A DNA stretch of 64,000 nucleotides from an uncultured bacterium (GCA_937996235.1 CALKVK010000032.1:242444-306443), one strand, 5' to 3'. Shown: positions 1,357 to 37,781, counted from the first letter of the stretch. A program made the numbers and translations. The notes: generated by a model not told the origin, from the letters alone.

Positions 1357-3021
1357 GTGCCTCCCCGCAAGCAACTGCTCGGTCAGATCCTGAAGGGCCT
1401 GCGCATCGGCGTGCACGAGGGCATGATCCAGGAGGCCCTCCAGGTGCAGCGCACGGACGGCGGCCAGATCGGCCAGATCCTCGTGCGGCTCGGGCACGTG
1501 ACCGAACAGCAGCTCATGCTGGCCCTCGGCGTGCAGGCGGGACTCGAGGTCGTCGACCTCGAGCGCGACCCGCCGGATCCGGCGCTCGTCGCGCGCATCG
1601 ACCGGCAGATGGCCGAGATGTTCGTGGTGTGCCCCGTCCGGATGGACGGCGCGAAGATGGTCGTCGCCATCGCGAACCCGCAGAACGCGTCGGTCCTCGA
1701 CGACCTGCGCTTCGTGCTGAACTGCGAGCTCGTGCCCGCCATCGCCGACGAGGCGCAGATCCGGCGCGCGCTGAAGGGCGGCGGGTCCGACGCCGACGCC
1801 ACGGCGCGCGCCGCGGCGGCCGCCCTCGAGTCCGAGGACGAGGGCAACGTCAACGCCGCGCCCGTCGTGAAGCTGCTGAACTACATCATCCTGCAGGCGG
1901 TGAAGGACAAGGCGTCGGACATCCACCTCGAGCCGTTCGAGACCGACTTCAAGGTGCGCTACCGCGTGGACGGCGTGCTGTACGAGCTCGAGCCGCCGCC
2001 GCCGCACCTCGCGACGGCGCTGATCAGCCGCGTGAAGGTCAAGTCGGGTCTCGACATCGCGGAGACGCGTCTGCCGCAGGACGGGCGCATCGACATGGCG
2101 ATCGGCGGCCGCAGCGTGGACCTGCGCGTCTCCACCCTCCCGACGATGTTCGGCGAGAGCTGCGTGATGCGCGTGCTCGACCGCAGCGTGATCTCGCTCG
2201 ACCTGGACCAGGTCGGCATGCGACCCGACGAGCTGGCCCAGTTCCGCGCGTTCCTCGGCCACCCGCACGGGATCGTGCTCGTCACGGGTCCCACGGGCTC
2301 CGGCAAGACGACCACGCTGTACTCCGCGCTGAACGAGGCCAACAGCCCGGACGCCAAGATCATCACGACCGAGGACCCCGTCGAGTACGACCTCGACGGC
2401 ATCGTGCAGGTCGCCGTGAACGAGGAGGTCGGGCTCACGTACGGCCGCGCCCTGCGCTCGATCCTGCGCCAGGACCCCGACGTGATCCTGGTGGGCGAGA
2501 TCCGCGACAACGAGACGGCTTCGATCGCCATCGAGGCCGCGCTGACGGGCCACCTGGTGTTCTCGACGGTCCACACGAACGACGCGTCGCTCGCCGTGAC
2601 CCGCATGCTCGACCTCGGCGTGGAGCCGTTCCTGCTCACGGCCACCCTCGACGCGATCGTCGCGCAGCGCCTCGTGCGCCGCGTGTGCACGAAGTGCAAG
2701 CAGTACTACGACCCCGCCGAGGACGTGCTGATGGAGCTCGGTCTCCGTCCCGAGGCCGTCGTCGGGAAGCAGTTCGCGTACGGCAAGGGCTGCGACCACT
2801 GCCACTTCACGGGGTTCAAGGGCCGGACGGCGATCTTCGAGATCCTCACGCTGAGCGACCGCATCCGCGAGCGGATCATGGAGGGCGCGGCGACCGACGA
2901 GATCCGCAACATCGCGAAGGAGCAGGGGATGCGCACCCTGCGCGACTCCGGACTGCTCTCCATCTACGACGGCGTGACGACCGTCGAAGAGGTGCTCCGC
3001 GAGACCATCGACGTGATGTGA
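1357..3021 (+). CDS. pilB: Type IV pilus assembly ATPase (GspE/PilB family) with an N-terminal GspII/T2SE_Nter domain
   Basis: 554 aa, GTG start 4 nt after the pilT stop. The N-terminal domain is (EALQVQ..GQILV..G.VTEQQL) and Walker A is GPTGSGKTTT. A CxxC...CxxC tetracysteine (CTKCKQYY...CDHCHFTG) is typical of PilB/GspE. Confidence 0.85.
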   Translation: MPPRKQLLGQILKGLRIGVHEGMIQEALQVQRTDGGQIGQILVRLGHVTEQQLMLALGVQAGLEVVDLERDPPDPALVARIDRQMAEMFVVCPVRMDGAKMVVAIANPQNASVLDDLRFVLNCELVPAIADEAQIRRALKGGGSDADATARAAAAALESEDEGNVNAAPVVKLLNYIILQAVKDKASDIHLEPFETDFKVRYRVDGVLYELEPPPPHLATALISRVKVKSGLDIAETRLPQDGRIDMAIGGRSVDLRVSTLPTMFGESCVMRVLDRSVISLDLDQVGMRPDELAQFRAFLGHPHGIVLVTGPTGSGKTTTLYSALNEANSPDAKIITTEDPVEYDLDGIVQVAVNEEVGLTYGRALRSILRQDPDVILVGEIRDNETASIAIEAALTGHLVFSTVHTNDASLAVTRMLDLGVEPFLLTATLDAIVAQRLVRRVCTKCKQYYDPAEDVLMELGLRPEAVVGKQFAYGKGCDHCHFTGFKGRTAIFEILTLSDRIRERIMEGAATDEIRNIAKEQGMRTLRDSGLLSIYDGVTTVEEVLRETIDVM

Positions 3022-3181
3022 AGCGACGTCGCGCCGGGCACGCGGAGGGGGGCAACTTTCCGCGTGCCGAGCGGCAGGCCACGGATGTACAGTCAGGGCG
3101 ACGTGGGAAGGCGCTCCGCACGAGCGCCGGCGCTCCTCGTGGAGCCCGGCCGGGCGGTCGGCGTCTGCGTGCTACAGGGAG

Positions 3182-4318
3182 GTGACGATGCCGCCGAAGG
3201 CGTCGGCCGCGGCAGCGGGCGGAGCGAAGGCCTCGAGGACGCGGGTCAGCGAGAAGGTGCTGACCGAGTTCACGTCGAATCTGGCCGTCCTCCAGGACGC
3301 CGGCCTGCCGATCGTGCGCTCGCTGAAGATCCTCGAGGGGCAGACCCGCGTCGGTCCCTTCAAGAAGACCCTCGTGGGCGTCTACGAGGACGTCGAGTCG
3401 GGCAACTCGCTGTCCGAGGCGATGGCCAAGCACCCGGGCGTCTTCGACGCGCTCTACACCAACATGGTGAAGGCGGGTGAGGCCGGCGGCATCCTGGACA
3501 CCATCCTGCAGCGCCTGGCCGAGTTCAAGGAGAAGAGCCAGAAGCTGAGGCGCAAGGTGCAGGGCGCGATGTTCTACCCGGTGGTCGTCACCATCGTCGC
3601 GACCGGCCTGCTCGGCTTCATCATGGTGTTCGTGGTGCCCAAGTTCAAGCAGGTGTACTCCACGATCACCACGAAGGACGGCAAGCCGCTCGAGCTGCCC
3701 GCCATCACGACGTTCCTGCTCGACGCGGCGGACTGGCTGATCCACGGCACCGAGAACTTCAAGGTGCCCGGCGCCGTGATCCTGCCGGTGCTCCTGATCC
3801 TGATCTTCATCGCGCTCCAGGCGGCGGCCCGCACGAAGGGCGGACGCGCGTTCTTCGACGGCCTCTGGCTCAAGACGCCCGTGCTCGGCCCCGTGGTGCG
3901 CATGACCATCGTCGCGCGCTTCACGCGCACGCTCGGCACGCTGCTCAACTCCGGCGTGCCGATCCTCGAGGCGCTGAACATCGTCCGCGGCGCGATCGGC
4001 AACGTGCACCTGCAGGCCGCGATCCAGCGCGTGCACGACGCGATCAAGGAAGGCGAGACCATGGCCGAGCCGCTCGGCAAGAGCGGCATCTTCGACGACA
4101 TGGTCGTGAACATGATCGACGTCGGCGAGGAGACGGGCGAGCTCGACAAGATGCTCATCCGCATCGCCGACAACTACGACGACCAGGTCGACGTGCGCCT
4201 GAACGCGCTGATCTCGATCCTGGAGCCGGCCCTGATCGTGGTCATGGGCGGCGCCGTGGCCTGCATCGTGTTCGCGATCTTCCTGCCGATGCTGAAGATC
4301 GTCGAGTCGCTCGGCTAG
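3182..4318 (+). CDS. pilC: Type IV pilus inner-membrane platform protein PilC (GspF family)
   Basis: 378 aa. Duplicated GspF domains and three TM segments are visible. The RBS GGGAGG precedes it. An alternative ATG start lies at 3188. Confidence 0.85.
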   Translation: MTMPPKASAAAAGGAKASRTRVSEKVLTEFTSNLAVLQDAGLPIVRSLKILEGQTRVGPFKKTLVGVYEDVESGNSLSEAMAKHPGVFDALYTNMVKAGEAGGILDTILQRLAEFKEKSQKLRRKVQGAMFYPVVVTIVATGLLGFIMVFVVPKFKQVYSTITTKDGKPLELPAITTFLLDAADWLIHGTENFKVPGAVILPVLLILIFIALQAAARTKGGRAFFDGLWLKTPVLGPVVRMTIVARFTRTLGTLLNSGVPILEALNIVRGAIGNVHLQAAIQRVHDAIKEGETMAEPLGKSGIFDDMVVNMIDVGEETGELDKMLIRIADNYDDQVDVRLNALISILEPALIVVMGGAVACIVFAIFLPMLKIVESLG

Positions 4319-10897: not shown

Positions 10898-13800
10898 GCG
10901 GCGATCCCGGCCACGAGCCGCTCGTCCAGCGCATCGTCCGCGCGTTCGTCACCGGACCGCTCTCGCCGGTTCTCCTCCTGCTCGCCGTGACCGCCGGTGT
11001 GGTTGCGGTCCTCGGCACGCCGCGCGAGGAGGAGCCGCAGATCGAGGTGCCGTCGGCCGACGTGCTCGTCTCGTTCCCCGGGGCGTCCGCCGAGGAGGTC
11101 GAGCGCCTCGTCGCGACGCCGCTCGAGCGCCTGCTCTGGCAGGTCGACGGCGTCGAGCACGTCTACTCCGTCTCGCGCCGCGACGGCGCCGCCGTGACCG
11201 TCCGCTTCTTCGTCGGCGAGGACCGCGAGCGCGCCCTCGTCCGCCTGCAGTCGAGGATCGACGCGCACCGCGACGAGGTCCCGCCCGGAGTGACCGGCTG
11301 GGTCGTGCGCCCGGTGGAGATCGACGACGTCCCGATCGTGTGCCTGACGCTCTGGTCGGAGTCCTGCGGACCGGCCGAGCTGCGGCGCGTCGCGGAGGAA
11401 CTCGGCGCGCGGCTCGACGACGTGCCCAACCTCTCGCGCACCCAGGTGATCGGCGGGCAGCCGCGCGAGGTCCGCGTCGAGCTCGACGCCGAGGCTCTCG
11501 GCGCGCACGGACTCACGGCGCTCGACGTCTCGCGCGCCCTCGCCGGGGCGGATTCCGCGCGCACGGCCGGAGCGTTCGACGCACTCGACGCCCACACGGC
11601 CGTGGCCGCCGGGCCCTTCGTCGGCGGCAGCGCGGAGGCCGCGGAGCTGGTGGTGGGGGCGCATGCGGGGCGGCCCGTGCGCCTGCGCGACGTCGCGCGC
11701 GTGCTCGACGCACCGGCGGAGGCGCGCGACGTCGTCCGCCTGGCGTTCGGCGCGGCGGCGCGCGGTGCAGGGCCCGTCGGCGCGACGTTCCCGGCCGTCA
11801 CGCTCGCGCTCTCGAAGAAGCGCGGCACGAACGCCGTCGGCGTCGCCGACGACGTGCTCGCACGGGCGCGCGAGCTGGCGCGCGACGTCCTGCCCTCCGA
11901 CGTGCACGTGCTCGTCACGCGCGACCACGGCGCGACGGCCGACGCGAAGGTGGACGAGCTGCTCGAAGAGCTCGCGCTCGCGATCGTGACCGTGGTGGGG
12001 CTCGTCGCGCTGTCGCTCGGCTGGCGCGAGGGACTCGTCGTCGCGGCAGCGGTGCCCATCACGTTCGCGCTGACGCTGCTCGTGAACCTGCTGGCCGGAT
12101 ACTCCGTCAACCGCGTGACGTTGTTCGCGCTGGTGCTCGCGCTCGGGCTCGTCGTCGACGACCCGATCGTCGACGTCGAGAACATCCACCGCCACTTCGC
12201 GCGCAAGCTGCGGCCGCCGCTCGAGTCGGTGCTCGCCGCCGTCAACGAGGTGCGCCCGCCCGTGATCGTGGCGACGCTCGCGGTGATGGTCTCGTTCCTG
12301 CCGATGCTCTTCATCACCGGGATGATGGGCCCGTACATGCGCCCGATGGCGCTCAACGTGCCGATCGCGATGGCGATGAGCCTGCTCGTCGCGTTCACGC
12401 TGACGCCGTGGATGTCGTACCACATGCTGCGCTCGCGCTACGGCGTCGCCGACGCCCACGACGCGGAGCACCCGGGGTGGACGGGGCGCGCCTACCGGCG
12501 GCTGATGCGCGCGCTCCTCGGCAGCGCCGCCCTGCGCGGCGGGCTGCTCGTCGTCGTGCTGGCGCTCCTCGCCGGCGCGGGCGCGCTCGCGCTCACGGGC
12601 GCGGTCCCGCTGAAGATGCTGCCGTACGACAACAAGAGCGAGCTGCAGGTGCTCCTCGACATGCCGGAGGGCACGACGCTCGAGCGCACGGACTCCGTCG
12701 TCCAGGAGGTCGCGTCCGAGCTTCTCGGCGCGCCCGAGGTGACCGACCTCGCGAGCTACGTCGGCGTGCCGGGGCCGATCGACTTCAACGGTCTCGTGCG
12801 GCGCTACGCGACCCGCACGGCACCGCACCAGGCCGAGGTGCGCGTCAACCTGCTGCCCAAGCAGGACCGCGTCCAGCGCTCGCACGAGATCGGCCTGCGC
12901 CTGCGGAACGCGCTCACGGCGATCGCCGAGCGCCACGGCGCGCGTCTCAAGATCGTGGAGATGCCGCCCGGTCCGCCCGTGCTGTCGACGCTCGTGGCCG
13001 AGGTCCGCGGGCCGCCGGGCGTCGCGTACGAGGACCTCGTCTCCGGCGCGCGCGACGTCGAGCGCCGACTCGCCGCGGAGCGCGGCGTCGTGGACACGGA
13101 CGTGATGGCGGAGGACCCGCACGCGCGGCTCGACTACGCGCTCGACAAGGAGAAGGCCGCGCTGCACGGCGTCGCGACGGCCGACGTGACACGCACGCTC
13201 GCGCTGGCGCTCGGCGGCGAGGTCCCCGCCACCGTGCACGAGCCCGGCGAGCGCGCGCCGCTGGCGCTGCGGCTGCAGCTCCCGCGGGCGCGGCGCAGCA
13301 GTGCCGGCGACCTCGCGCGCGTACGCGTGCGCGGGGCCGGCGACGCGCTGGTGCCACTCGCCGAGCTCGGGAGCTTCGAGACGCGCACGGAGGACCAGCC
13401 CGTCTTCCACAAGGACCTCGCGCCGGTGGCGTTCGTGCTGGGCGACGTCGCGGGCCGGCCTCCGGCCGAGGTCGTGCTGGCGCTGCAGCGCGACCTGGGC
13501 GAGCGACCGCTCGCCGCCGGCGCCGTCGCCGCGTGGGACGGCGAGGGCGAGTGGAAGATCACGCTCGACGTGTTCCGCGACCTCGGCATCGCGTTCGCCG
13601 GGGCGCTCGTCGGCATCTACGTCCTGCTCGTCGTCGAGACGCGCTCGTTCGGCATGCCGCTGCTCGTGATGCTCGCGATCCCGCTCTCGGCGATCGGCAT
13701 CCTGCCGGGCTTCTGGCTGCTGAACGTCCTCGGCACGGCCCCCGTCGGCGGCCACGCCGCACCCGTGTTCTTCACGGCCACGGGCATGATCGGGATGATC

Positions 13801-14103
13801 GCGCTCGCCGGGATCGTCGTGCGGAACGCGATCATCCTCATCGACTTCGTGCGCCACCGCGTGGACGCGGGCGCGCCGCTCGACGACGCCGTCGTCGAGA
13901 GCGGCGCGGAGCGGCTGCGTCCCATCATCCTGACCGGCGGGACGGCGCTCCTCGGCGCGTGGCCCATCACGCTCGACCCGATCTTCTCGGGTCTGGCGTG
14001 GAGCCTGATCTTCGGCCTCGTCGCGTCCACCGCGTTCACGCTGGTCGTCGTCCCCGTCGCCTACCACACCCTGACGAAGGGCCGGAGCGCCGCCGCGCGC
14101 TGA
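10894..14103 (+). CDS. RND efflux transporter permease (AcrB/CusA superfamily)
   Basis: 1069 aa, in frame within the 9568..14103 ORF, with ATG at 10894. N-terminus MSGDPGHEPLVQRIVRAFVTGPLSPVLLLLAV. 12-TM topology with two large periplasmic loops. Confidence 0.85.
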   Translation: MSGDPGHEPLVQRIVRAFVTGPLSPVLLLLAVTAGVVAVLGTPREEEPQIEVPSADVLVSFPGASAEEVERLVATPLERLLWQVDGVEHVYSVSRRDGAAVTVRFFVGEDRERALVRLQSRIDAHRDEVPPGVTGWVVRPVEIDDVPIVCLTLWSESCGPAELRRVAEELGARLDDVPNLSRTQVIGGQPREVRVELDAEALGAHGLTALDVSRALAGADSARTAGAFDALDAHTAVAAGPFVGGSAEAAELVVGAHAGRPVRLRDVARVLDAPAEARDVVRLAFGAAARGAGPVGATFPAVTLALSKKRGTNAVGVADDVLARARELARDVLPSDVHVLVTRDHGATADAKVDELLEELALAIVTVVGLVALSLGWREGLVVAAAVPITFALTLLVNLLAGYSVNRVTLFALVLALGLVVDDPIVDVENIHRHFARKLRPPLESVLAAVNEVRPPVIVATLAVMVSFLPMLFITGMMGPYMRPMALNVPIAMAMSLLVAFTLTPWMSYHMLRSRYGVADAHDAEHPGWTGRAYRRLMRALLGSAALRGGLLVVVLALLAGAGALALTGAVPLKMLPYDNKSELQVLLDMPEGTTLERTDSVVQEVASELLGAPEVTDLASYVGVPGPIDFNGLVRRYATRTAPHQAEVRVNLLPKQDRVQRSHEIGLRLRNALTAIAERHGARLKIVEMPPGPPVLSTLVAEVRGPPGVAYEDLVSGARDVERRLAAERGVVDTDVMAEDPHARLDYALDKEKAALHGVATADVTRTLALALGGEVPATVHEPGERAPLALRLQLPRARRSSAGDLARVRVRGAGDALVPLAELGSFETRTEDQPVFHKDLAPVAFVLGDVAGRPPAEVVLALQRDLGERPLAAGAVAAWDGEGEWKITLDVFRDLGIAFAGALVGIYVLLVVETRSFGMPLLVMLAIPLSAIGILPGFWLLNVLGTAPVGGHAAPVFFTATGMIGMIALAGIVVRNAIILIDFVRHRVDAGAPLDDAVVESGAERLRPIILTGGTALLGAWPITLDPIFSGLAWSLIFGLVASTAFTLVVVPVAYHTLTKGRSAAAR

Positions 14104-14374
14104 CGAAAGTCGTTGCGGTGCGGCGCCCATGCGGTGAAATACGCCGTCTCCCGGACCGCGGCGCACGTCGCCGGGGCAGGGGCCGATGCAGGAAGACGAC
14201 GACTCCTCCGTTCGCGCGGGGCAGCGGATCGCCGCTCGCAGGGTGGGGATCGTGCTCGCGGTGCTCGTCGCGCTCCTGTTCGCGCTCCCGTTCCTGTACC
14301 GGACGCTGTAGCGGGGGAGGCGGGCGCCGCGCGGCGCCCCGCGCGGCCGGACGACAGGGAGCGGAGGTGACTCC

Positions 14375-17688: not shown

Positions 17689-17812
17689 CCGGGCGGGGTG
17701 CGACGCGTGCGCGGCGAACGTGCGCGCGGCGACGCGGTTGTCGGAGGCGCGCCCCGCGCGCGCGTCCCGCAGCCGAGCACCCCGGGCCGCCGCCCCACGG
17801 AGACCCCGACGA

Positions 17813-19594
17813 ATGGAGAAGCGCGTCGTCCTGGCGATGGTCCTGAGCGTCGTCCTGCTCATGGGCTGGTCCGCTCTGGCCCGCAGGTACGCTCCGCCCC
17901 CGGCGCCGCCGCGGACGACCGTCGCCCCGGCGGACGGGCAGGGCGGACCGGACGCGCCGGCCGTACCGCCGCCGCCGCCGCCGCCGGACGGGCACGGCGA
18001 CGCGTCCGCGCCGGGCGCCGTCCCCGCCCCCGTGGCCGAGGACGCGCCGCCGACGACGCTCGACGTGGACCCGGGCCGCATCCGCTTCCGCGCGACCTCG
18101 GCGGGCGCCGGCCTCCAGCGCGCCGCGGTGTGGGCCTGCCCGGTGCACGCGGTCGACGATCCGGAGGCGCAGGACGACCCGGGTGTCGTCTCCGAGTCGC
18201 CCCCGGGCATGCCCGGCTTCCTCGCGACGAACCTGCTGGGCAGCGACCTCTACCGGCGCAACTGGACCCTCACGCGCGACGGCAACGGCTTCGTCGCGTC
18301 GATCGACGATCCCGAGCGGGGCGTGCGTCTCACGAAGACGGTGACGCCGGTCGCCACGGAGGCGGATCCGTACGGCATCGACGTGGAGATCCGGGTCGAG
18401 GGACTCGGAACGGGGACGGGGCGCGCGCTGACGCTCGAGGTGGTCGGTCCGGCCACCGTGCCGTCGTCGACGCCGTTCCCGGAGGACGGTGTCTGCGTCG
18501 CGCGTCCCGACCAGGACCTTTCGGTGCGCCACGCCGACGCGATCGTGAAGGAGCTCACGGCGAACCCCACGTTCGAGGAGTCGGCGGCCGGCGGGCTCAC
18601 GTGGGTCGGCACGCGCAACGGGTTCCACCTCGGCGCACTCGGATTCGTCGGGCCCGTCCCCGAGGGGGCGGCGGTCGGCTTCGTGCAGGGCGCGGCGACC
18701 CTCCACGGTGCGGCGCAGCCCGTGCTCGTTGCGGCGCCGACGCTGCGCATGCCCGTCGTGGTCCCCGCGGCGGGTCAGGTCGTGACGCTGCGCCTGCGCG
18801 CGTTCGCCGGTCCGAACAGCCGCCCGCTCCTCACGGCGGAGGATTCCCCGTACCGCGCGTACGCGGACGCGGTCGTCAACCGCGGCTTCTTCTTCCTGCG
18901 CTTCGGCTGGATCTCTCGCATCCTCGGCTGGTTCCTGCGCGTGCTGGCGTCGACCGGCATGGGCTACGGCGTCGCGATCGTGTGCCTCACGGTCATCGTG
19001 CGCGGACTGCTCTTCCCGATCTCGAAGAAGTCGCAGATCTCGATGCGCGTCCACGGCAAGAAGATGCAGCTCCTGAAGCCGCGCATGGACGCGATCAAGG
19101 AGAAGATCAAGGACCAGCGCAAGCAGCAGGAAGCGATCATGAAGCTGATGCGCGAGGAGAAGGTGTCGCCGGTGCCCGGCGGCTGCCTGCTCGCGTTCAT
19201 CCAGATGCCGATCTGGATCAGCCTCTACGGCGTGCTCCAGAGCACGTTCGAGCTGCGCCACGAGCGCTTCCTGTGGGCGGCCGACCTCACGCGCCCGGAC
19301 CACCTGCTGCGGCTGCCGTTCACCGACGGGCTGTGGATCGTCGACGGGTGGCTGAACCTCTTCCCGATCCTGATGATGATCACGTGGGGGATCTCGTCGT
19401 TCATGGCGCCCCTGCCCGACGACCCGCAGCAGCGGCAGACGGCGAAGATGATGCGCTGGATGCCCATGCTGTTCGGCGTGATGCTCTACAACTACGCCTC
19501 CGGCCTGTGCATCTACATGACGTGTTCGGCCATCTGGTCGATCGGCGAGATGCAGCTCATCAAGCGCGTGTGGCTCGCGAAGCTCGACCTCTGA
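17813..19594 (+). CDS. yidC: Membrane protein insertase YidC
   Basis: N-terminal TM MEKRVVLAMVLSVVLLMGW, a large periplasmic domain, and a C-terminal five-TM Oxa1 core (PISKKSQISMRVHGKKMQLLKPRMDAIKEKIKDQ...). The track ORF begins upstream at 17720. Confidence 0.85.
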   Translation: MEKRVVLAMVLSVVLLMGWSALARRYAPPPAPPRTTVAPADGQGGPDAPAVPPPPPPPDGHGDASAPGAVPAPVAEDAPPTTLDVDPGRIRFRATSAGAGLQRAAVWACPVHAVDDPEAQDDPGVVSESPPGMPGFLATNLLGSDLYRRNWTLTRDGNGFVASIDDPERGVRLTKTVTPVATEADPYGIDVEIRVEGLGTGTGRALTLEVVGPATVPSSTPFPEDGVCVARPDQDLSVRHADAIVKELTANPTFEESAAGGLTWVGTRNGFHLGALGFVGPVPEGAAVGFVQGAATLHGAAQPVLVAAPTLRMPVVVPAAGQVVTLRLRAFAGPNSRPLLTAEDSPYRAYADAVVNRGFFFLRFGWISRILGWFLRVLASTGMGYGVAIVCLTVIVRGLLFPISKKSQISMRVHGKKMQLLKPRMDAIKEKIKDQRKQQEAIMKLMREEKVSPVPGGCLLAFIQMPIWISLYGVLQSTFELRHERFLWAADLTRPDHLLRLPFTDGLWIVDGWLNLFPILMMITWGISSFMAPLPDDPQQRQTAKMMRWMPMLFGVMLYNYASGLCIYMTCSAIWSIGEMQLIKRVWLAKLDL

Positions 19595-19916
19595 GCCGCG
19601 CCCGGCCCGCCCTGCACTGTCCCCGCCCGCGCGTACCATCCTGACGTGCGCGCGGGCTCCGGCGGCCCGTCGGCACACCGGCGTCCGGAAGGGCCGCCGG
19701 CGTCCGGCCTCGAGTCGCCCGCGACCGTCCCGCGAGGCGCCGTCCGCACGCGGACGCGCGCCGCGTACGGCCCTCGCGTGGATGCGGAAACGGCTTGTGG
19801 CGCAACGGGTTGGGTCCTAGACTGCCTGCCATCGCAAGATCCTGGGGTGGCCGGGCGCGGGGACCGTCGTGTCCGCTCTGCCCGGGGCCGGCGCCCGGGC
19901 TCGTGGGGAGCCGCGC

Positions 19917-20420
19917 ATGCGTTGTCCGTTCTGCAAGGAGAACCGCGACAAGGTCATCGACTCCCGCGAGAGCTCCGACGGCTTCATCATCCGTCGGCGT
20001 CGGGAGTGCGAGGGCTGCGAGCGGCGCTTCACCACGCGGGAGCGCATCGAGGAGACGCCGCTGCGCGTCATCAAGCGCGACGGCAGCCGCGAGGACTTCG
20101 AGCGGCGCAAGATCCTGATGGGCCTGCTCACGGCGTGTCAGAAGCGGCCGATCGCGACCGACGACCTCGAGAAGATCGTCCAGCGCGTCGAGGAGCGCAT
20201 CCTCGACACCGCCGATCGCGAGATCGAGACCGAGGCGATCGGCGACATGGTCATGCGCGAGCTCGCCGGGATCGACAAGGTCGCGTACGTCCGCTTCGCG
20301 TCGGTGTACCGCAACTTCGAGTCGCCCGAGGACTTCGAGGCGATCGCGCAGCAGGTCGCGAAGCCCGCTCGGCGCGCGGCGCGCAAGTCGCAGAAGGCGA
20401 AGGAGCCCGAGGCCACGTGA
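19917..20420 (+). CDS. nrdR: Transcriptional repressor NrdR
   Basis: MRCPFCKENRDKVIDSRESSDGFIIRRRRECEGCERRFTT zinc ribbon plus ATP-cone (VIKRDGSREDFERRKI). Confidence 0.9.
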   Translation: MRCPFCKENRDKVIDSRESSDGFIIRRRRECEGCERRFTTRERIEETPLRVIKRDGSREDFERRKILMGLLTACQKRPIATDDLEKIVQRVEERILDTADREIETEAIGDMVMRELAGIDKVAYVRFASVYRNFESPEDFEAIAQQVAKPARRAARKSQKAKEPEAT

Positions 20421-22516
20421 GGCGCGTGGCCCTGGTCCGCCGGCGCGACGGCGAGACGGTCGCCTTCGAGCAGCAGCGCGTCCGCGACGCGGTCGAGCGT
20501 GCGCTGCTGGCGACCGGCGGACCGGACCGCGGTCTCTCCGAGCACGTCGCGGCGATGGTCGAGCTGTTCCTCGACAAGACCTACTTCGACGAGATCCCGA
20601 CCACCGACCAGGTCGAGGACATGGTCGAGAAGGTCCTCATGGACACCGGCCACGCCGAGGCGGCGAAGGCGTTCATCCTCCACCGCGAGCGGCGGCGCCG
20701 CATGCGCGAGGCGCGCGAGGCGCGCGACGCGCGCCTGCAGCCGACGCTGTTCGACAACCGCGTCGTCGTCGTCGACGACGCCGTCGAGGGCCGTGCGGCC
20801 GCCTTCTCGCGCGAGCGGCTCGCGCGCACGCTCTCGGCCGACGGCTCGGTCACGCGCGCCCTCGCCGACGACGTCGCGGCGGCGGTCGAGATGCGGCTCC
20901 GCGCGGGCGGCGTCGCGCGTGCCCCGGCCGCGCTCGTCCGCGCGCTCGCGGAGGCGGAGCTCCTCGAGCGGAGCGCGGCGCTCGACCTGCGACGGCGCGG
21001 CGGCGCCGTGCTCGCGCCGGAGCGCCTCGCCGCGGCCCTCTATCGCAAGGGCACCGGCGGACCCGCCGCGCCCGGCGGCGCGCCGTTCCCCGCCGTCGCC
21101 GCGACCGAGCTCGGGGGCGCCGCACTGCGCTGCCACGCGCTCGGCGAGCTGCTCCCGGCCGACGTGGCGCGCGCGCACCAGGACGGCGACGTGCACGTGC
21201 ACGGGCTCTCGCTCCCGGCGGCGCTCTTCTCGGCATCGCTCTCGCCGCGCGACGTCGCGGAGGGCAACGCGCCGGGCGCGGCCTCGCGCGTCCCCGCCGA
21301 CGCGGCGCGCAGCGCACGGCGCCTCACGGCGATGCTCGGGCGCAGCGCGCGCTTCCTCGGCGCGGCCGTCATCGACGGCGTCGCGGTCGTGGACGTACCC
21401 GACGCGTACGCGCCGCTCCTCGCGTCGGCCGACCGCGACGCGCTCGCCGAGGAGGCGTGGCACCTGCTCCTCGAGTGCTCGGCGGACGTCGGCGGCCGCC
21501 GCGTCGCGCTCGACCTCTCGCCCGTCGCCGACGCGGGCGAGGAGACGGCATCGGCGGCGTTCGCGACGGCACTGCTGCGCGCGCACGGGCGGCGCGAGGG
21601 GCTGCCCGGGGCCGACCTCCTGCCGCTGCCCGTCGTGACCGTCTCGGATCGCGCGTTCGAGAGCGACGCGGCGCGCGACGTGCTGCGCCTCGCCGCGGAC
21701 GCCGTGCTGCGCGGCTCCACGGTCGTGTTCCCTCTCGTGCGCGGCGCGGCGCCCGCCGCCTCGCCGCGCGACGTGCGCCGCGGAGCGAGCGCGCGGCCGG
21801 CGCGCGCGTGCGCGGGACGCATCACGCTGAACCTGCCCCGGCTCGCGCGCCGCGTCGGACGCGGCCGCATCGAGGGCTTCCTGCGCGCGTGCGACCGCCT
21901 CGTCGACCTGGCCGCTGCGGGGCATCAGGCGCGCCGCGAGCTCCTCGCGCAGGTGGCGGGCGCCTCGGGCGGCTGCCTGGCGCCGCTCCTGCGCGGACCG
22001 CGCGGGCGCACGCCGCTCTACGACCTCGCCGACGCGACGTGGTCCTTCGGCGTCACGGGTCTGAACGAGACGGCGCAGCTCCTCTGCGGCTTCGAGCTGC
22101 ACGACGACGACGAGGGCGCGGCGCGGCTCGCACGCCGCATCGCGTCGTACCTGGCGCTGCGCGTGCGCGAGGCGGGCGCAGCCGGCGACTTCCACGCGAC
22201 GCTCGACTCCGACGACGACGCGGACACGGCGCAGCGCCTCTTCGCCGCCGACCGGCTCGACGCGCCCGCGGCGATGTCCGACCACTTCCCCGATCGCAGC
22301 TCGTACTCGCCGGGCGTCGCCGTCCGCGAGGACGCGCCGGTCGACCTCCTCGCACGCATCGACCACGAGGAGGCGCTGCACGCGAACCTTGCGACGGCGA
22401 CGCTCCGGGTGCGGCTCGCGGCGGGGGACACGGGCGGCCCCGACGGGATCGTCGCGCTCCTGCGCAAGCTCCTCAGGGCGGGTGCCGCCGAGCGCGTGGA
22501 GGTGGCGACGTGGTGA
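20417..22516 (+). CDS. nrdD: Anaerobic (class III) ribonucleotide reductase NrdD-like protein with N-terminal ATP-cone; no canonical C-terminal glycyl-radical motif seen
   Basis: GTG start overlapping the nrdR stop. ATP-cone (VRRRDGETVAFEQQRVRDAVERAL). NrdD-like motifs AHQDGDVHVHGL, GRITLNLPRLA and FGVTGLNETAQLL. The C-terminus ...VALLRKLLRAGAAERVEVATW lacks an RVCGY-type glycine loop and a Cys-rich Zn ribbon. Confidence 0.6.
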   Translation: MRRVALVRRRDGETVAFEQQRVRDAVERALLATGGPDRGLSEHVAAMVELFLDKTYFDEIPTTDQVEDMVEKVLMDTGHAEAAKAFILHRERRRRMREAREARDARLQPTLFDNRVVVVDDAVEGRAAAFSRERLARTLSADGSVTRALADDVAAAVEMRLRAGGVARAPAALVRALAEAELLERSAALDLRRRGGAVLAPERLAAALYRKGTGGPAAPGGAPFPAVAATELGGAALRCHALGELLPADVARAHQDGDVHVHGLSLPAALFSASLSPRDVAEGNAPGAASRVPADAARSARRLTAMLGRSARFLGAAVIDGVAVVDVPDAYAPLLASADRDALAEEAWHLLLECSADVGGRRVALDLSPVADAGEETASAAFATALLRAHGRREGLPGADLLPLPVVTVSDRAFESDAARDVLRLAADAVLRGSTVVFPLVRGAAPAASPRDVRRGASARPARACAGRITLNLPRLARRVGRGRIEGFLRACDRLVDLAAAGHQARRELLAQVAGASGGCLAPLLRGPRGRTPLYDLADATWSFGVTGLNETAQLLCGFELHDDDEGAARLARRIASYLALRVREAGAAGDFHATLDSDDDADTAQRLFAADRLDAPAAMSDHFPDRSSYSPGVAVREDAPVDLLARIDHEEALHANLATATLRVRLAAGDTGGPDGIVALLRKLLRAGAAERVEVATW

Positions 22517-22557
22517 GGCGTGCGCCGCCGCTGCCCCCCGTGCGCGGACTCCAGCCG

Positions 22558-23247
22558 ATGTCGCTGACGGCGTGGGAGGGGCGCGTCACCGCGGTGCTGC
22601 AGATCCAGGGCTGCAACTTCCACTGCCCGGACTGCCCCGTGCCGCACCTGATCGCCACGTCCGTCGAAGGGGGCTCGATCCCGATCGAGAGCGCGCTCGA
22701 GGCGCTGTACCGCCGCCGGCGCTGGCTCGACGCGGTCGTCATCGCCGGCGGCGAGCCCACGCTGCACGAGGGCACGCGCGAGCTCGTCCGGCTGGTCCGC
22801 GAGTTCGGCCTGCGCGTGCGGCTGCACACGAACGGCTCGAACCCGCTCGCGCTGCGCGAACTGCTCGACACCGGCGAGCTCGCCAGCGTCTCGATGACCG
22901 TGCGCGGTCCGCTCGACCCGACCTACGCCGTCGCCGTCGGCGCGCGCGTGCGCCTCGCGAACGTCTACGAGTGCGTCGAGCTGCTCCTGCGCGCGCCGGG
23001 GGAGCACGAGTTCCGCGTGCCGTGGCTCCCGCAGGTCGTCGAACACGACCAGATGGTGGCCGTGCTGCGCATGCTCGCGGGTGCGCGCCGTGTCGTGCTC
23101 GAGCCGGCGCGCGACGGTTCGCCCGGAGTCCGGACGCTCCAGCAGGTGGGGCGTGCGGCCGGCACCTACGTCGAGAGCTGCGTCGTGGCGGCGCGGCCCG
23201 GACAGGACTTCGGCGCGCGGGGCCGCTCCCGCAGTGTGTCGCCGTGA
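22558..23247 (+). CDS. nrdG: Radical-SAM activating enzyme (NrdG/PflA family)
   Basis: CNFHCPDC CxxxCxxC cluster and GGEP glycine-rich SAM motif. A GTG at 22513 overlapping the nrdD stop is an alternative start. Confidence 0.7.
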   Translation: MSLTAWEGRVTAVLQIQGCNFHCPDCPVPHLIATSVEGGSIPIESALEALYRRRRWLDAVVIAGGEPTLHEGTRELVRLVREFGLRVRLHTNGSNPLALRELLDTGELASVSMTVRGPLDPTYAVAVGARVRLANVYECVELLLRAPGEHEFRVPWLPQVVEHDQMVAVLRMLAGARRVVLEPARDGSPGVRTLQQVGRAAGTYVESCVVAARPGQDFGARGRSRSVSP

Positions 23248-23287
23248 CCGCACACCGGGGCGGTCGACCCGCAGGGAGTACCCACGC

Positions 23288-26200
23288 ATGCGCCTGAAGT
23301 CGCTCCGGCTGCACGGCTTCAAGTCGTTCGCGCTGCGTACCGAGTTCACGTTCCCCGAAGGGCTGACGTGCATCGTCGGCCCGAACGGCTGCGGGAAGTC
23401 GAACGTCGTCGACGCGATCAAGTGGGTGCTCGGGGAGCAGCGACCGACCGCGCTGCGCGGCTCCGAGATGCAGGACGTGATCTTCGGCGGCACCGCCGCG
23501 CGCAAGCCCGTCGGCATGGCCGAGGTCACGCTCGTCTTCGACAACGCGAACCGCACGATCGACGTCGACTGGACCGAGGTCGAGGTGACGCGCCGCGTCT
23601 ACCGCGACGGCAGCAGCGAGTACCTGCTGAACCGCAGTCGCTGCCGCCTGCGCGACCTGCGCGAGCTGCTCATGGACACGGGCAGCGGGCAGGGCGCGAT
23701 GACGATCATGGAGCAGGGCAAGATCGACCAGATCCTGCGCGAGGGGCACCAGGAGCGGCGCGCGGTGTTCGAGGAGGCGGCCGGCGTCGCGAAGTACAAG
23801 GCGCGGCGCAAGGAGTCGCTGCGGCGCCTCGAGCAGGTCGAGGCCGACCTCCTGCGCGTCAGCGACGTCGTCGCGGAGAAGCAGCGCCTCGTGCGCTCGC
23901 TGAAGATCCAGGCGGGTCGCGCGGAGCGCTACCAGGCGCTCGTCGACGAGATGCGCGCCAAGCGCCTGCAGCTCGCGGTGCACCGCTACGGACTGCTCGT
24001 CACCGAGTCCGACGAGGCCACGCGCCGTGTCGAGGAGCTGACGACCGCCGAGGCCGCCGCGCGCGCCGAGGTCGAGCGCTCCGCCGCCGAGTGCCGCCGC
24101 GTCGAGGACGAGGTCGAGGAGGCGCGCGTCTCGGCCTCGCGTCTCGAGCAGGAGATCACGTCGCTCGAGGGCCAGGCCGAGACCGCGCGCGAGAAGTCCG
24201 CGTTCGCGGCGCGCCTGATGGCCGAGCTCGACGGGAAGATCCGCTGGTACCGCGACGAGATCGAGAGCGGCGGCGAGCGGCTCGAACAGATCGCGGTCGC
24301 CGGGCAGGAGGTCGCCGAATCGCTCGCGCGCGCCGCGGTCGAGCGCGACGAGCGCGCCGCCGCCGTGCGCGCCGCGGAGGAGGGCATCCGAGCGCTCGCC
24401 GCCGACCACGCCGAGCGCCGCCGTGTCACCGACGGTCTCGCGCGGCTGGCGTACGAGGTCGTCGAGCGCCGCGCCGTGCTCGGGAGCCGCCGCTCGCGGC
24501 TCGACGCGCGCCACCAGGCGCTCGAGGCGCAGCGTGCCCGTCTGCTCGAGCGCCTCGCGGGTCTCGAGTCCGACGCGCTCGCCGCGCGCGAGCGGGCCGC
24601 GCGGACGGCCGAGGCGCTCTCCGCCGCGCAGGCGCGCGTGGACGCCGCGCAGAGCGCGCTCGCCGAGGCCGAGGCGCGCACGGCCGCGGCGGAGGAGCGC
24701 GTCCGCGCCGACCGCGAGACGGCGACGAGCCTCGACCGCGAGGTGTCCGGACTGCGCAGCCGCGTGGACGTGCTGCAGCACCTCTGTCGCCAGATGGAGG
24801 GCGTGGCCGAGGGTGCGAAGAAGCTCGTCGCCGCCGCGCGCGCCGGCGAGACCGAACTCGCAGGCGTGCGCGGTCTCCTCGCCGAGTTCGTCGAGACCGA
24901 CGCCGCGGACGCGCCGCTGGTCGAGAGCGCCCTCGGCGCGTACGCCTCGGCCGTGGTGGTCGCGACGTTCGCAGACGCGGAACGCGCCGCCGCGTACCTC
25001 GCGCGGAAGCGCCTCGGGCGCTGCCTACTCGTGCCGCTCGACGACATCCGCGCGGCCGCGGTCGGCGCGGGGGCCGAGTCGCTGGCCGCGCGCGTGCGCT
25101 GCGCCGACGACATCCGGCCCGTCGTCGCGGCGCTCCTGGGCGAGACGGTCGCCGTCGCCACGCTCGCCGAGGCGCGTGCGCGTCGCGCGGACGCACCGCA
25201 CGCACTGCGCGTGGTCACGGTGGGCGGCGAAGTGCTCGAGAGCACGGGGGCGCTCGCCGCGGGCGGCGAGGCCGGCGGGACGGGCGTCCTGCGTCGGCGC
25301 ATCGAGCTCCGCGACCTGTCGGCGCGACTCGACGAGCAGCGCGCGCGGCTCGAGGCGGCGCGCGCATCGCAGCGCGCGGCCGAGCTCGAGCAGACCGAGG
25401 CGCGGCGCGCGCTCGGCGCGGCGCGCGATGCGCTGCGGCGCGACGAGAGCGATGCGCACCGCGCCCGCTCCGAGTCCGAGCGCACGGCGTCCGACGTGAC
25501 GCGCCTCGCCGGCGACTCCACGCGGCTCGACGGCGAGGTCGAGGAGATCGCGCGCGAGCTGACGCGGATCGACGACGAGCGCGAGGTGGCGACGGCCGAC
25601 GCCGCACGCCTCGACGCCGAGCGCGTCGACGTCGAGGCGCGCCGCGCCGACGCCGCCCGCGCCGCGGCCGACGCCGAGGCACGGCTGCGCGAGGCGGAGG
25701 GGCTGCGCGCCGACCTGCGCGTTCAGGCCGCCGCGGTGCAGGAGCGCTGCGCGGCGCTCGAGGCGCGGGCGAAGTCGCTGCAGACCGAGATCCGCGATGT
25801 CGAGGACGGTGTGCGCGAGGCGCGCGAGGAGCTCGCGGCATGCGAGCAGCGGCGCGAGGAGGCGGACCAGCGCGGGAAGCAGGCGCGCACCGACCACACG
25901 AGGGCGCTCGCGCGCCGCGACGACTGCATCGTCGCGCTGACCGAGGTGCGCCACCGCCTGGGCGACGCGCGAGCGCGGCTCGAGGAGCGGCGCGTGCTGC
26001 TCGACGGCTTCGAGAAGGAGGCAGGTGGGCTCGGCAAGGAGCTCACGCGCTTCCGCCTGCGCCAGAACGAGGCGCGGCTGCGTGTCGAGAACCTCGTCGA
26101 GCGGCTGCGCGACGAGCTCGAGATCGATCTGCACGCGGCGTGGATGGCGTCGCGCTCCGAGGGCGCACAGGCGCCCGCCGCGCCCGTCTACGCGGAGAGC

Positions 26201-26896
26201 GCGTCGGCGCCGTTCGACGCCGTCGCCGTCGAGGCCGAGGTGCAGGACCTGCGCGACCGCATCGCGCGCATGGGCAACGTCAACCTCGAGGCCCTCGACC
26301 AGCTCCAGACGGTCGAGCGCGAGGCCGACGAACTGCAGCGGCAGCACGACGACCTGACGCGCTCGCGCGAGTCGCTGCTCGAGGCGATCCGGCGCATCGA
26401 CGCGGAGAGCCGCGAGCTGTTCGTCTCGACGTTCGAGAAGATCCGCGAGAACTTCCGCGAGACGTTCCGTCGGCTGTTCGAGGGCGGCAAGGCCGACATC
26501 TTCCTCGACGAGGGCCAGGACGTGCTCGAGGCGGGCATCGACATCGTCGCGCGTCCGCCGGGCAAGGAGCCGCGCTCGATCTCGCTGCTCTCCGGCGGCG
26601 AGCGCACGATGACCGCCGTTGCGCTGCTCTTCGCCATCTACAAGGCGAAGCCGTCGCCGTTCTGCCTGCTCGACGAGGTGGACGCCGCGCTGGACGAGGC
26701 GAACGTGGAGCGTTTCGCGACGCTCGTGCACGAGTACTCGACCGAGAGCCAGTTCATCATCATCACGCACAACAAGCGCACGATGAGTGCCGCCGACACG
26801 ATCTTCGGCGTGTCGATGCCGGAGCGCGGCGTCAGCCGCCGTCTGGCCGTCCGCCTCGAGGACGTCGGCGACAACGGCGAGATCCGCGCGGCGTAG
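23288..26896 (+). CDS. smc: Chromosome segregation protein SMC
   Basis: 1202 aa. N-terminal Walker A (GPNGCGKSN), long coiled coils with a hinge, C-terminal signature LSGGERTMTAVALLFAI and Walker B (CLLDEVDAALDE). Confidence 0.9.
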   Translation: MRLKSLRLHGFKSFALRTEFTFPEGLTCIVGPNGCGKSNVVDAIKWVLGEQRPTALRGSEMQDVIFGGTAARKPVGMAEVTLVFDNANRTIDVDWTEVEVTRRVYRDGSSEYLLNRSRCRLRDLRELLMDTGSGQGAMTIMEQGKIDQILREGHQERRAVFEEAAGVAKYKARRKESLRRLEQVEADLLRVSDVVAEKQRLVRSLKIQAGRAERYQALVDEMRAKRLQLAVHRYGLLVTESDEATRRVEELTTAEAAARAEVERSAAECRRVEDEVEEARVSASRLEQEITSLEGQAETAREKSAFAARLMAELDGKIRWYRDEIESGGERLEQIAVAGQEVAESLARAAVERDERAAAVRAAEEGIRALAADHAERRRVTDGLARLAYEVVERRAVLGSRRSRLDARHQALEAQRARLLERLAGLESDALAARERAARTAEALSAAQARVDAAQSALAEAEARTAAAEERVRADRETATSLDREVSGLRSRVDVLQHLCRQMEGVAEGAKKLVAAARAGETELAGVRGLLAEFVETDAADAPLVESALGAYASAVVVATFADAERAAAYLARKRLGRCLLVPLDDIRAAAVGAGAESLAARVRCADDIRPVVAALLGETVAVATLAEARARRADAPHALRVVTVGGEVLESTGALAAGGEAGGTGVLRRRIELRDLSARLDEQRARLEAARASQRAAELEQTEARRALGAARDALRRDESDAHRARSESERTASDVTRLAGDSTRLDGEVEEIARELTRIDDEREVATADAARLDAERVDVEARRADAARAAADAEARLREAEGLRADLRVQAAAVQERCAALEARAKSLQTEIRDVEDGVREAREELAACEQRREEADQRGKQARTDHTRALARRDDCIVALTEVRHRLGDARARLEERRVLLDGFEKEAGGLGKELTRFRLRQNEARLRVENLVERLRDELEIDLHAAWMASRSEGAQAPAAPVYAESASAPFDAVAVEAEVQDLRDRIARMGNVNLEALDQLQTVEREADELQRQHDDLTRSRESLLEAIRRIDAESRELFVSTFEKIRENFRETFRRLFEGGKADIFLDEGQDVLEAGIDIVARPPGKEPRSISLLSGGERTMTAVALLFAIYKAKPSPFCLLDEVDAALDEANVERFATLVHEYSTESQFIIITHNKRTMSAADTIFGVSMPERGVSRRLAVRLEDVGDNGEIRAA

Positions 26897-37547: not shown

Positions 37548-37619
37548 GCCGGCGTAGCTCAATGGCAGAGCTCCTGTTTTGTAAACAGGAGGTTGGGGGT
37601 TCGAGTCCCCCCGCTGGCT
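37548..37619 (+). tRNA. tRNA-Thr (anticodon UGU)
   Basis: Hand-folded cloverleaf: acceptor GCCGGCG/CGCTGGC (one G-U), D-arm GCTC-AATGGCA-GAGC, anticodon arm CCTGT-TTTGTAA-ACAGG (UGU), T-arm GGGGG-TTCGAGT-CCCCC. CCA is not encoded. Confidence 0.8.
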
Positions 37620-37695: not shown

Positions 37696-37781
37696 GGGTG
37701 GTTGCCCGAGCGGCCAATGGGACCAGACTGTAAATCTGGCGGCTTATGCCTGCGGTGGTTCGAATCCACCACCACCCACCA
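37696..37781 (+). tRNA. tRNA-Tyr (anticodon GUA), type II with long variable arm, CCA encoded
   Basis: Acceptor GGGTGGT/ACCACCC, anticodon arm CCAGA-CTGTAAA-TCTGG, long variable arm, T-arm GGTGG-TTCGAAT-CCACC. The 5' part is very similar to E. coli tRNA-Tyr. Confidence 0.85.

Follow-up and report, generated by a model that had tools for sequence, protein, structure and literature searches.

A probable class III ribonucleotide reductase pseudoenzyme encoded between nrdR and an intact radical-SAM activase gene

An NrdD homolog encoded between nrdR and a radical-SAM gene

We examined a 64,000-nucleotide (nt) stretch of DNA from an uncultured bacterium (GCA_937996235.1, CALKVK010000032.1:242444-306443; hereafter the window, with a GC content of ~75%) that contains three closely spaced genes on the plus strand: nrdR (19917..20420), a GTG-initiated gene for a 699-amino-acid (aa) homolog of the class III ribonucleotide reductase (RNR) NrdD, which we call NrdD* (20417..22516), and a gene for an NrdG2-type radical S-adenosylmethionine (SAM) 'activase' (22510..23247). 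Class III RNRs are defined by a glycyl radical. NrdD* has the capacity for neither a glycyl nor a thiyl radical, it is conserved and looks expressed, and its radical-SAM neighbour is intact; we conclude that it is very probably a selected, catalytically dead derivative of NrdD, that is, a pseudoenzyme.

The first gene of the trio is identified as nrdR by its match to TIGR00244 (182.8 bits) and by the Pfam domains Zn_ribbon_NrdR and ATP-cone, and probably starts at the ATG at 19917 (MRCPFC...) rather than at the GTG at 19869. Its stop codon overlaps the start of the NrdD* gene in the sequence GTGA, and the stop codon of NrdD* overlaps the start of the radical-SAM gene by 4-7 nt. A first-pass annotation, made from the sequence alone, had described a tightly packed nrdR / nrdD-like / nrdG-like trio with nrdR upstream of the NrdD-like gene, and both the packing and the identity of nrdR are borne out here; when the related loci were examined, nrdR lay directly 5' of a gene for NrdD or an NrdD-like protein in most of them.

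NrdD* begins with an ATP-cone (aa 7-94, 20435..20698; Pfam E = 1.3e-18), which is followed by a second, degenerate ATP-cone-like segment (aa ~118-184, 20768..20968) and by an alpha/beta-barrel core that ends at the last barrel strand (aa ~241-699, 21137..22513; delimited by an AlphaFold model and by alignment). In the alignment, the degenerate segment corresponds to the second cone of canonical NrdDs from Planctomycetota, in which Pfam finds two ATP-cone stretches, and the alpha/beta pattern of the NrdD* model agrees with that second cone. All of the motifs quoted in the first-pass annotation are present (GDVHVHGL, GRITLNLPRLA and FGVTGLNETAQLL), and the barrel segments AHxxGxxHVHGL, TLNLPR and GLNE are retained, so the earlier description of an open reading frame (ORF) of ~699 aa with a leading ATP-cone and an NrdD-like core stands.

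By profile searches, the match to NrdD is very weak. The Pfam NRDD model (PF13597) matches NrdD* with 57.8 bits against a gathering score of 26.2, but only over profile positions 276-467 of 562, leaving the C-terminal part of the profile unmatched, and with the NCBIfam NrdD equivalogs it reaches 62-76 bits where the cutoffs are 326-764 (for example, 75.8 against 548). Pfam NRDD scores form a gradient, from 423 bits in a canonical protein and 394 in a form that has lost its radical glycine (see below) to 58 in the window and 25 in a dead relative (L053). The AlphaFold model of NrdD*, built on a 34-sequence alignment, has a mean predicted local distance difference test score (pLDDT) of 84.7 and the fold of RNRs and glycyl-radical enzymes, an alpha/beta barrel with 10 strands; the top 36 fold matches in the PDB are all NrdD (E 1e-19 to 4e-11), the best being the class III RNRs of S. 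thermophilus, P. copri, T. maritima and T4 (E 1e-19 to 1e-12). The Pfam, profile and structural evidence together refute the concern, raised in the first-pass annotation, that A/R-rich stretches had made its motif reading unreliable.

NrdD* has lost the catalytic elements of class III RNRs

Losses were mapped on a MAFFT alignment of NrdD* with canonical NrdDs of Planctomycetota, Brocadiia and WOR-3 taken from genome loci. Canonical proteins recovered by our genome scan (Planctomycetota, Brocadiia, Omnitrophota and WOR-3) are ~800 aa long and share 24-28% identity with NrdD* across its whole length. The roles of Cys416, Cys171, Gly711 and the NxN flap have been described for a solved NrdD (PMC11226230). 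The first-strand (second active-site) cysteine, found in canonical proteins within VYCSSHS, is missing from the corresponding LFSASLS of NrdD*, and the finger-loop thiyl-radical cysteine of SACCRLRT is missing from ASPRDVRRG. The NxN flap (ENSNI) has become a Gly/Pro/Ala stretch (GTGGPAAPGG), the triphosphate-binding site ESPAESA an acidic segment (DSDDDADTA), and YYTNS reads SYSPG. What remains of the Cys finger loop (aa 442-463, 21740..21805) is ~10 residues shorter than the canonical loop, contains no cysteine and is predicted to be disordered (pLDDT <50 for aa 444-460); no cysteine at all is conserved across the clade of dead proteins that keep an activase gene.

Where canonical proteins continue with ISPEFTxCxxC...CxxC...RIVGY, NrdD* stops at the last barrel strand (...VEVATW), so that the protein ends where the glycyl-radical/Zn-ribbon domain would begin. 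The alignment with canonical relatives leaves no intact glycine loop or Zn ribbon in NrdD*, in agreement with the first-pass annotation, which had noted the lack of an RVCGY-like loop and a Zn ribbon. When 22100-22700 was translated in three frames, none contained a Zn ribbon (CxxC...CxxC) or a G[YFW] loop, and no displaced RVxGY plus CxxC module was found there. More widely, a six-frame motif scan found no RVxGY-type motif in real ORFs of the window, and neither the class I/II finger-loop motif N[PLS]C[GSTAL]E nor a CCRL motif occurs in it.

Two alternative glycyl-radical sites were considered and rejected. The segment around the invariant G633 (YxPG) is the homolog of canonical YYTNS..R.DAPVDL; in the case of G518/G519, G519 is absent from the other dead clades.

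By the known mechanism, NrdD* can neither carry a glycyl radical nor generate a thiyl radical, and it cannot bind substrate. The option offered in the first-pass annotation of a glycyl-radical-less NrdD-like variant was therefore correct yet understated, since the cysteines, the NxN flap, ESPAES, YYTNS and the redoxin gene of the operon (see below) have been lost as well; it is because of these additional losses that we regard NrdD* as a dead enzyme and not as an RNR with an unusual radical site. It lacks five defining features of NrdD; its fold, its ATP-cone and its genomic context are all that it retains. In its way of working it resembles neither a class III RNR nor a regulator of any described kind.

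Conservation and purifying selection

Among 5.8 billion proteins searched, we found 34 relatives, 655-761 aa long, and most of them span the full length of NrdD*. The 32 closest (40-100% identical) all end alike (...VEVxxW); the other two are more distant, with 29-34% identity. Closest to the window locus are metagenome-assembled genomes (MAGs) of Planctomycetota. The gene order yidC-nrdR-nrdD*-radical-SAM-smc is kept both in a locus whose NrdD* is 74% identical (L001) and in one on a 2-Mb contig at 53% identity (L081). Rough pairwise estimates of the ratio of nonsynonymous to synonymous substitution rates (dN/dS) are 0.23-0.46 for NrdD*, comparable to 0.26-0.43 for nrdR, and 0.17-0.29 for the radical-SAM gene. 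The GC content at third codon positions (GC3) is 0.96 in the called NrdD* frame, and the frame is therefore coding. NrdD* thus combines loss of catalytic residues with purifying selection and a conserved fold, the combination expected of a pseudoenzyme.

Constraint is unevenly distributed along the protein. The ATP-cone is the best-conserved domain, with 41-60% identity even when the comparison is with canonical NrdDs or with distant relatives that are dead, and the former finger loop is the least conserved segment in the same per-domain comparison (9-30% identity; mean 0.28). NrdD* residues R9, R10, R90, R93 and R97 align with K7, R8, R84, R87 and R91 of P. copri NrdD, so that all four phosphate-contacting residues of the latter (K7, R8, R87 and R91) have basic counterparts in R9, R10, R93 and R97; Y83 of P. 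copri NrdD is replaced by H89. With its basic nucleotide-binding residues kept, the ATP-cone of NrdD* is a predicted nucleotide sensor.

Flanking the trio, also on the plus strand, are the kept upstream neighbour yidC (17720..19594; supported by tblastn synteny and by the Pfam 60KD_IMP domain in L081) and the kept downstream neighbour smc (23289..26896). Upstream of nrdR, a sigma-70-like element, TTGTGG-N17-TAGACT (19794..19822, plus strand), aligns with L001 and partly with L081 and is a candidate promoter for the operon, put forward purely by inference, as its score of 8/12 does not reach the threshold of the consensus scan; a promoter/terminator scan of 19500-23400 gave no match at that threshold. 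Three tandem copies of CCCCTTGTAACGCTGAC lie just 5' of this element in L001. Far from the locus, two tRNA genes (37548-37619 and 37696-37778) are the sole Rfam matches in the window at the gathering threshold.

The radical-SAM activase is intact

The radical-SAM gene encodes 244 or 245 aa, from a GTG at 22513 or 22510 to 23247, and matches the NrdG2 model TIGR02495 with 130.1 bits against a cutoff of 131.15. It carries both CNFHCPDC, starting at 22612, and IAGGEPTL; the NrdG-like radical-SAM gene that the first-pass annotation had recognised by the former motif directly downstream of the NrdD-like gene is thereby confirmed. Within the activase clade, CxxxCxxC is kept in 86/86 members and GGEP in 84/86, and between the window and L081 the activase is 73% identical, against 53% for NrdD*. 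Activases from dead loci share a deletion of ~10 aa relative to canonical activases, and among solved structures the only match is to a distant radical-SAM lipid synthase. A cognate glycyl-radical substrate is found neither in the adjoining NrdD* nor encoded anywhere within the window; the substrate of the activase cannot be a glycyl loop of NrdD*, because NrdD* has no such loop.

Evolution of the operon and the wider family of dead NrdD-like proteins

The canonical gene order in Planctomycetota is nrdR, nrdD, a gene for a glutaredoxin-like CxxC protein (~90 aa; Pfam Glrx-like, 22 bits) and nrdG. This redoxin gene is present in 19 loci and absent from every dead locus, and in dead loci that have nrdG, nrdG abuts or overlaps nrdD*. 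Examples of the redoxin gene, with a CAKC motif, lie between nrdD and nrdG in L004 (10438-10710), L011 (10634-10903), L013, L017, L020, L034 and others; its product is presumably the reductant of canonical Planctomycetota/Brocadiia NrdDs.

Considering the complete, non-archaeal loci examined, 16 are canonical with nrdR, the redoxin gene and the activase gene; 5, the group to which the window belongs, are dead with nrdR and the activase gene; ~10 are dead with nrdR and without the activase gene; and one or two, including a Hydrogenedentota MAG, are dead and without nrdR. Among the dead NrdD-like family, the NrdG-like radical-SAM gene is kept only in the window's subclade. A second dead clade, without an activase, includes L052, L053, L064, P0033, P0081, P0108, P0117, P0146, P0150 and P0165; its C-termini carry a conserved ...PWP[RD]Rx[VL]R tail, and the window clade stops at the equivalent Trp.

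In L081, the homologous nrdR-nrdD*-nrdG locus has genes for cytochrome c oxidase subunits (COX3, COX4_pro; 2908-3941) ~6 kb upstream, which suggest aerobic respiration in the lineage. This would fit a lineage that lives aerobically and can dispense with an oxygen-sensitive RNR, the essential RNR presumably being encoded elsewhere in the genome.

The family extends well beyond these loci. When 1.84 billion cluster representatives were searched exhaustively with HMMER, 2266 matched, 704 of them at E <1e-10, and by a regular-expression motif test 141 of the 161 long proteins among the best matches are without the Gly motif, the Zn ribbon, CCRL and YTNS. Dead NrdD-like proteins are called 'ATP cone domain-containing protein' or 'hypothetical protein' in their sources, and no NCBIfam model fits them. 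In a rough neighbour-joining tree the Planctomycetota dead forms fall together on long branches, with the Hydrogenedentota form apart. Dead NrdD-like proteins encoded beside nrdR are a large, apparently uncurated and mostly Planctomycetota family; a literature search for Gly-less, dead or truncated NrdD homologs found no description of them, with subscription-only papers outside its coverage.

Two further kinds of departure from canonical NrdD were seen among the related loci. In one, a group of Planctomycetota proteins has lost the radical glycine (L008 8001-10403; L016 5672-8038; L024 5062-7455; L050; P0043, P0051, P0159). In this group, VYCSSHS, SACCRLRT, ESPAESA, YYTNS and the Zn ribbon are intact and RIVGY is replaced by RISRGDRDS, GIFREDKSS or DIIRVAAED; the loci have no redoxin gene, an intact NrdG-like gene adjoins directly, and the proteins nest among canonical NrdDs on short branches of the neighbour-joining tree. 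In the other, NrdD is split in MAGs of WOR-3-like/UBP2 bacteria (L027 7884-10313; L029 565-2880; L032 8001-10301): CCRL, YYTNS and the Zn ribbon are kept, and a stop codon (TAG/TAA) falls one residue before the radical Gly (...GIERIK*). L027 has a separate 99-aa ORF ending ...VNHITRVTGYFTIVEGWNKGKLGELKDRYHSQIA, which contains ITRVTGYF and represents a stand-alone glycyl-radical module, and then the redoxin gene and nrdG (further coordinates of this locus are 12760-13059, 13165-13476 and 13637-14335); in L029 the same small ORF begins right after nrdD. Finally, the NrdD of a Candidatus Anammoxibacter MAG (L030), whose redoxin and activase genes are present, has the C-terminus YGVSSNSCCSKK in place of the YGITRIVGYFSR of its relatives; either a genuine variant or a fault in the assembly could account for this.

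A proposed role for NrdD* and its alternatives

In our reading, nrdD* is the positional ortholog of the Planctomycetota class III RNR gene, stripped of the machinery for radical ribonucleotide reduction, and the glutaredoxin-like reductant gene of the operon has been lost as well. The ATP-cone, the second degenerate cone and the barrel scaffold are the parts remaining under purifying selection, in a protein made from what appears to be a single, tightly coupled nrdR-nrdD*-nrdG transcription unit. Because the ATP-cone is under the strongest constraint and the gene is coupled to nrdR, nucleotide-sensing regulation or scaffolding suggests itself as the most likely role: NrdD* may act as an ATP/dATP-sensing regulatory or scaffold protein in deoxynucleoside triphosphate (dNTP) homeostasis, possibly by associating, via its ATP-cone, with NrdR or with the RNR on which the organism really relies. 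In the window's subclade, NrdD* would also bind the NrdG-type radical-SAM protein, whose substrate no longer resides in NrdD*. Taken as a whole, a pseudoenzyme that serves as an ATP/dATP-sensing regulator or scaffold is the explanation we consider likely; any specific regulatory mechanism, drawn as it is from sequence, is put forward tentatively and is itself rather doubtful.

Several observations weigh against this explanation. The NrdR box ACACWANATNTWGTGT, allowing <=3 mismatches, has zero matches in the whole 64-kb window, including the region upstream of the nrdR operon. The motif test by which the wider family was classified may misfile proteins that match only via the ATP-cone, and the dN/dS values are rough because dS is near saturation and GC3 is 0.96. 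A further difficulty is that a purely regulatory role leaves unexplained why an intact, apparently translationally coupled radical-SAM gene is kept in this subclade and lost in other dead lineages.

Two alternatives address this last point directly. One is that the NrdD* barrel and the NrdG-type protein have been turned to a new activity that needs no glycyl radical, for example direct 5'-deoxyadenosyl chemistry on a new substrate or Fe-S/O2 sensing. The activase is more conserved than NrdD* with all cofactor motifs intact, in the window, L001 and L081 its start still overlaps the NrdD* stop, and the redoxin gene that separates canonical nrdD and nrdG is gone; furthermore, the deletion of ~10 aa is common to the activases of dead loci, and the separately branching Gly-less group (L008, L016, L024) likewise has an adjacent activase without a redoxin gene. 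However, most dead NrdD lineages have lost the activase (10 loci with nrdR and no activase), and the core function of NrdD* therefore does not need it; in addition, no new conserved catalytic-looking residues were identified, and the idea has no experimental precedent. We judge such a new activity unlikely, and give similarly low weight to one concrete form of it, in which NrdD* and the NrdG-type protein would make up a module without a glycyl radical, such as an Fe-S/SAM oxygen or redox sensor joined to the ATP/dATP-sensing cone, and would act together with NrdR to set which RNR is expressed.

The other is that the activase serves a different glycyl-radical enzyme encoded elsewhere, such as a second NrdD or pyruvate formate-lyase (PFL), and stays beside a functionally unrelated NrdD* for historical reasons. 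An intact activase without a target in NrdD* would be accounted for in this way, and the nrdR-nrdD-nrdG order is indeed ancestral, but history alone sits poorly with a 4-7 nt gene overlap maintained across genomes that are 53-74% identical, and the aerobic lifestyle suggested by the cytochrome oxidase genes of L081 is one in which glycyl-radical enzymes are uncommon. We find this explanation equally improbable.

Far less probable is that NrdD* is still an RNR, supplied with its glycyl radical in trans by a separate small protein that is encoded elsewhere and activated by the adjacent activase. The activase at the window locus is intact, and split arrangements are real in relatives (L027, L029, L032), one of which, L027, has the separate 99-aa module; unlike these split forms, however, NrdD* is without both cysteines, the NxN flap, ESPAES, YYTNS and the redoxin gene. 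It is the missing cysteines that contradict a radical in trans, none being conserved across the dead-plus-activase clade, and a stand-alone glycyl-radical ORF was found only in L027, with none in the 64-kb window or the dead loci. A recent, non-functional pseudogene, its C-terminus lost by frameshift or decay as the first-pass annotation had suggested, would account for the very low NRDD score and the lost catalytic motifs but can be dismissed, because the full-length ORF and its end are conserved in homologs down to ~30% identity and in many representative clusters, no displaced module exists in other frames, dN/dS is 0.23-0.46, GC3 is 0.96 and the fold is predicted with confidence.

A selected pseudoenzyme therefore remains our favoured account, and it carries several implications. 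The family points to an enzyme that, without leaving its locus, became a protein devoid of catalysis and is maintained by selection next to nrdR, mostly in Planctomycetota. If this is true, NrdD* would be a bacterial pseudoenzyme derived from an RNR and perhaps a new player in the regulation of dNTP pools, and should a joint NrdD*/NrdG module prove real, it would put a glycyl-radical-enzyme activase to a new use in which no glycyl radical takes part. The window's subclade poses the question of what task is left for a perfectly conserved activase after deletion of the glycine on which it acted and of the whole radical pathway. It also follows that such genes should not be annotated as 'anaerobic ribonucleoside-triphosphate reductase', nor anaerobic dNTP synthesis inferred from them.

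Comparison with known systems

NrdD* shares its predicted barrel fold and its ATP-cone with class III RNRs of solved structure (T4, T. maritima, P. copri and S. thermophilus), but these have the glycyl-radical domain, the Zn ribbon, both cysteines, the NxN flap, ESPAES and YYTNS, and NrdD* has none of them. The closest genomic counterpart is the canonical operon of Planctomycetota and Brocadiia (L004, L006, L011, L049 and others), which occupies the same locus with the same gene order, the neighbours yidC and smc being common to several. It differs from the window in encoding an NrdD of ~800 aa with all motifs and in having the redoxin gene, whereas the window encodes a protein of 699 aa, has neither, and joins nrdG to nrdD* by a start/stop overlap. 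NrdR, with which NrdD* has an ATP-cone in common and with which it is, from the gene arrangement, apparently co-transcribed and translationally coupled, carries a Zn ribbon as its DNA-binding domain and lacks a barrel; NrdD*, in contrast, is without a recognisable DNA-binding domain.

Stand-alone glycyl-radical 'spare part' modules are known in the GrcA/YfiD-type proteins, and together with the 99-aa module of L027 they indicate that the glycyl-radical loop is separable from the barrel. In those systems the barrel partner keeps its catalytic cysteines, whereas the barrel of NrdD* is dead and the window contains no such module. The Gly-less NrdDs with an intact active site and the split NrdDs with their 99-aa module form a natural series for the loss and splitting of the radical domain.

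The betaherpesvirus proteins M45 and UL45 are inactive homologs of the RNR large subunit, in which the fold has been selected after catalytic loss and reused non-enzymatically. By analogy, they would be the nearest conceptual precedent for NrdD*, although they are viral proteins that originate from class I R1 and target the cell-death signalling of the host, whereas NrdD* is bacterial, derives from class III and is linked to nrdR and nrdG.

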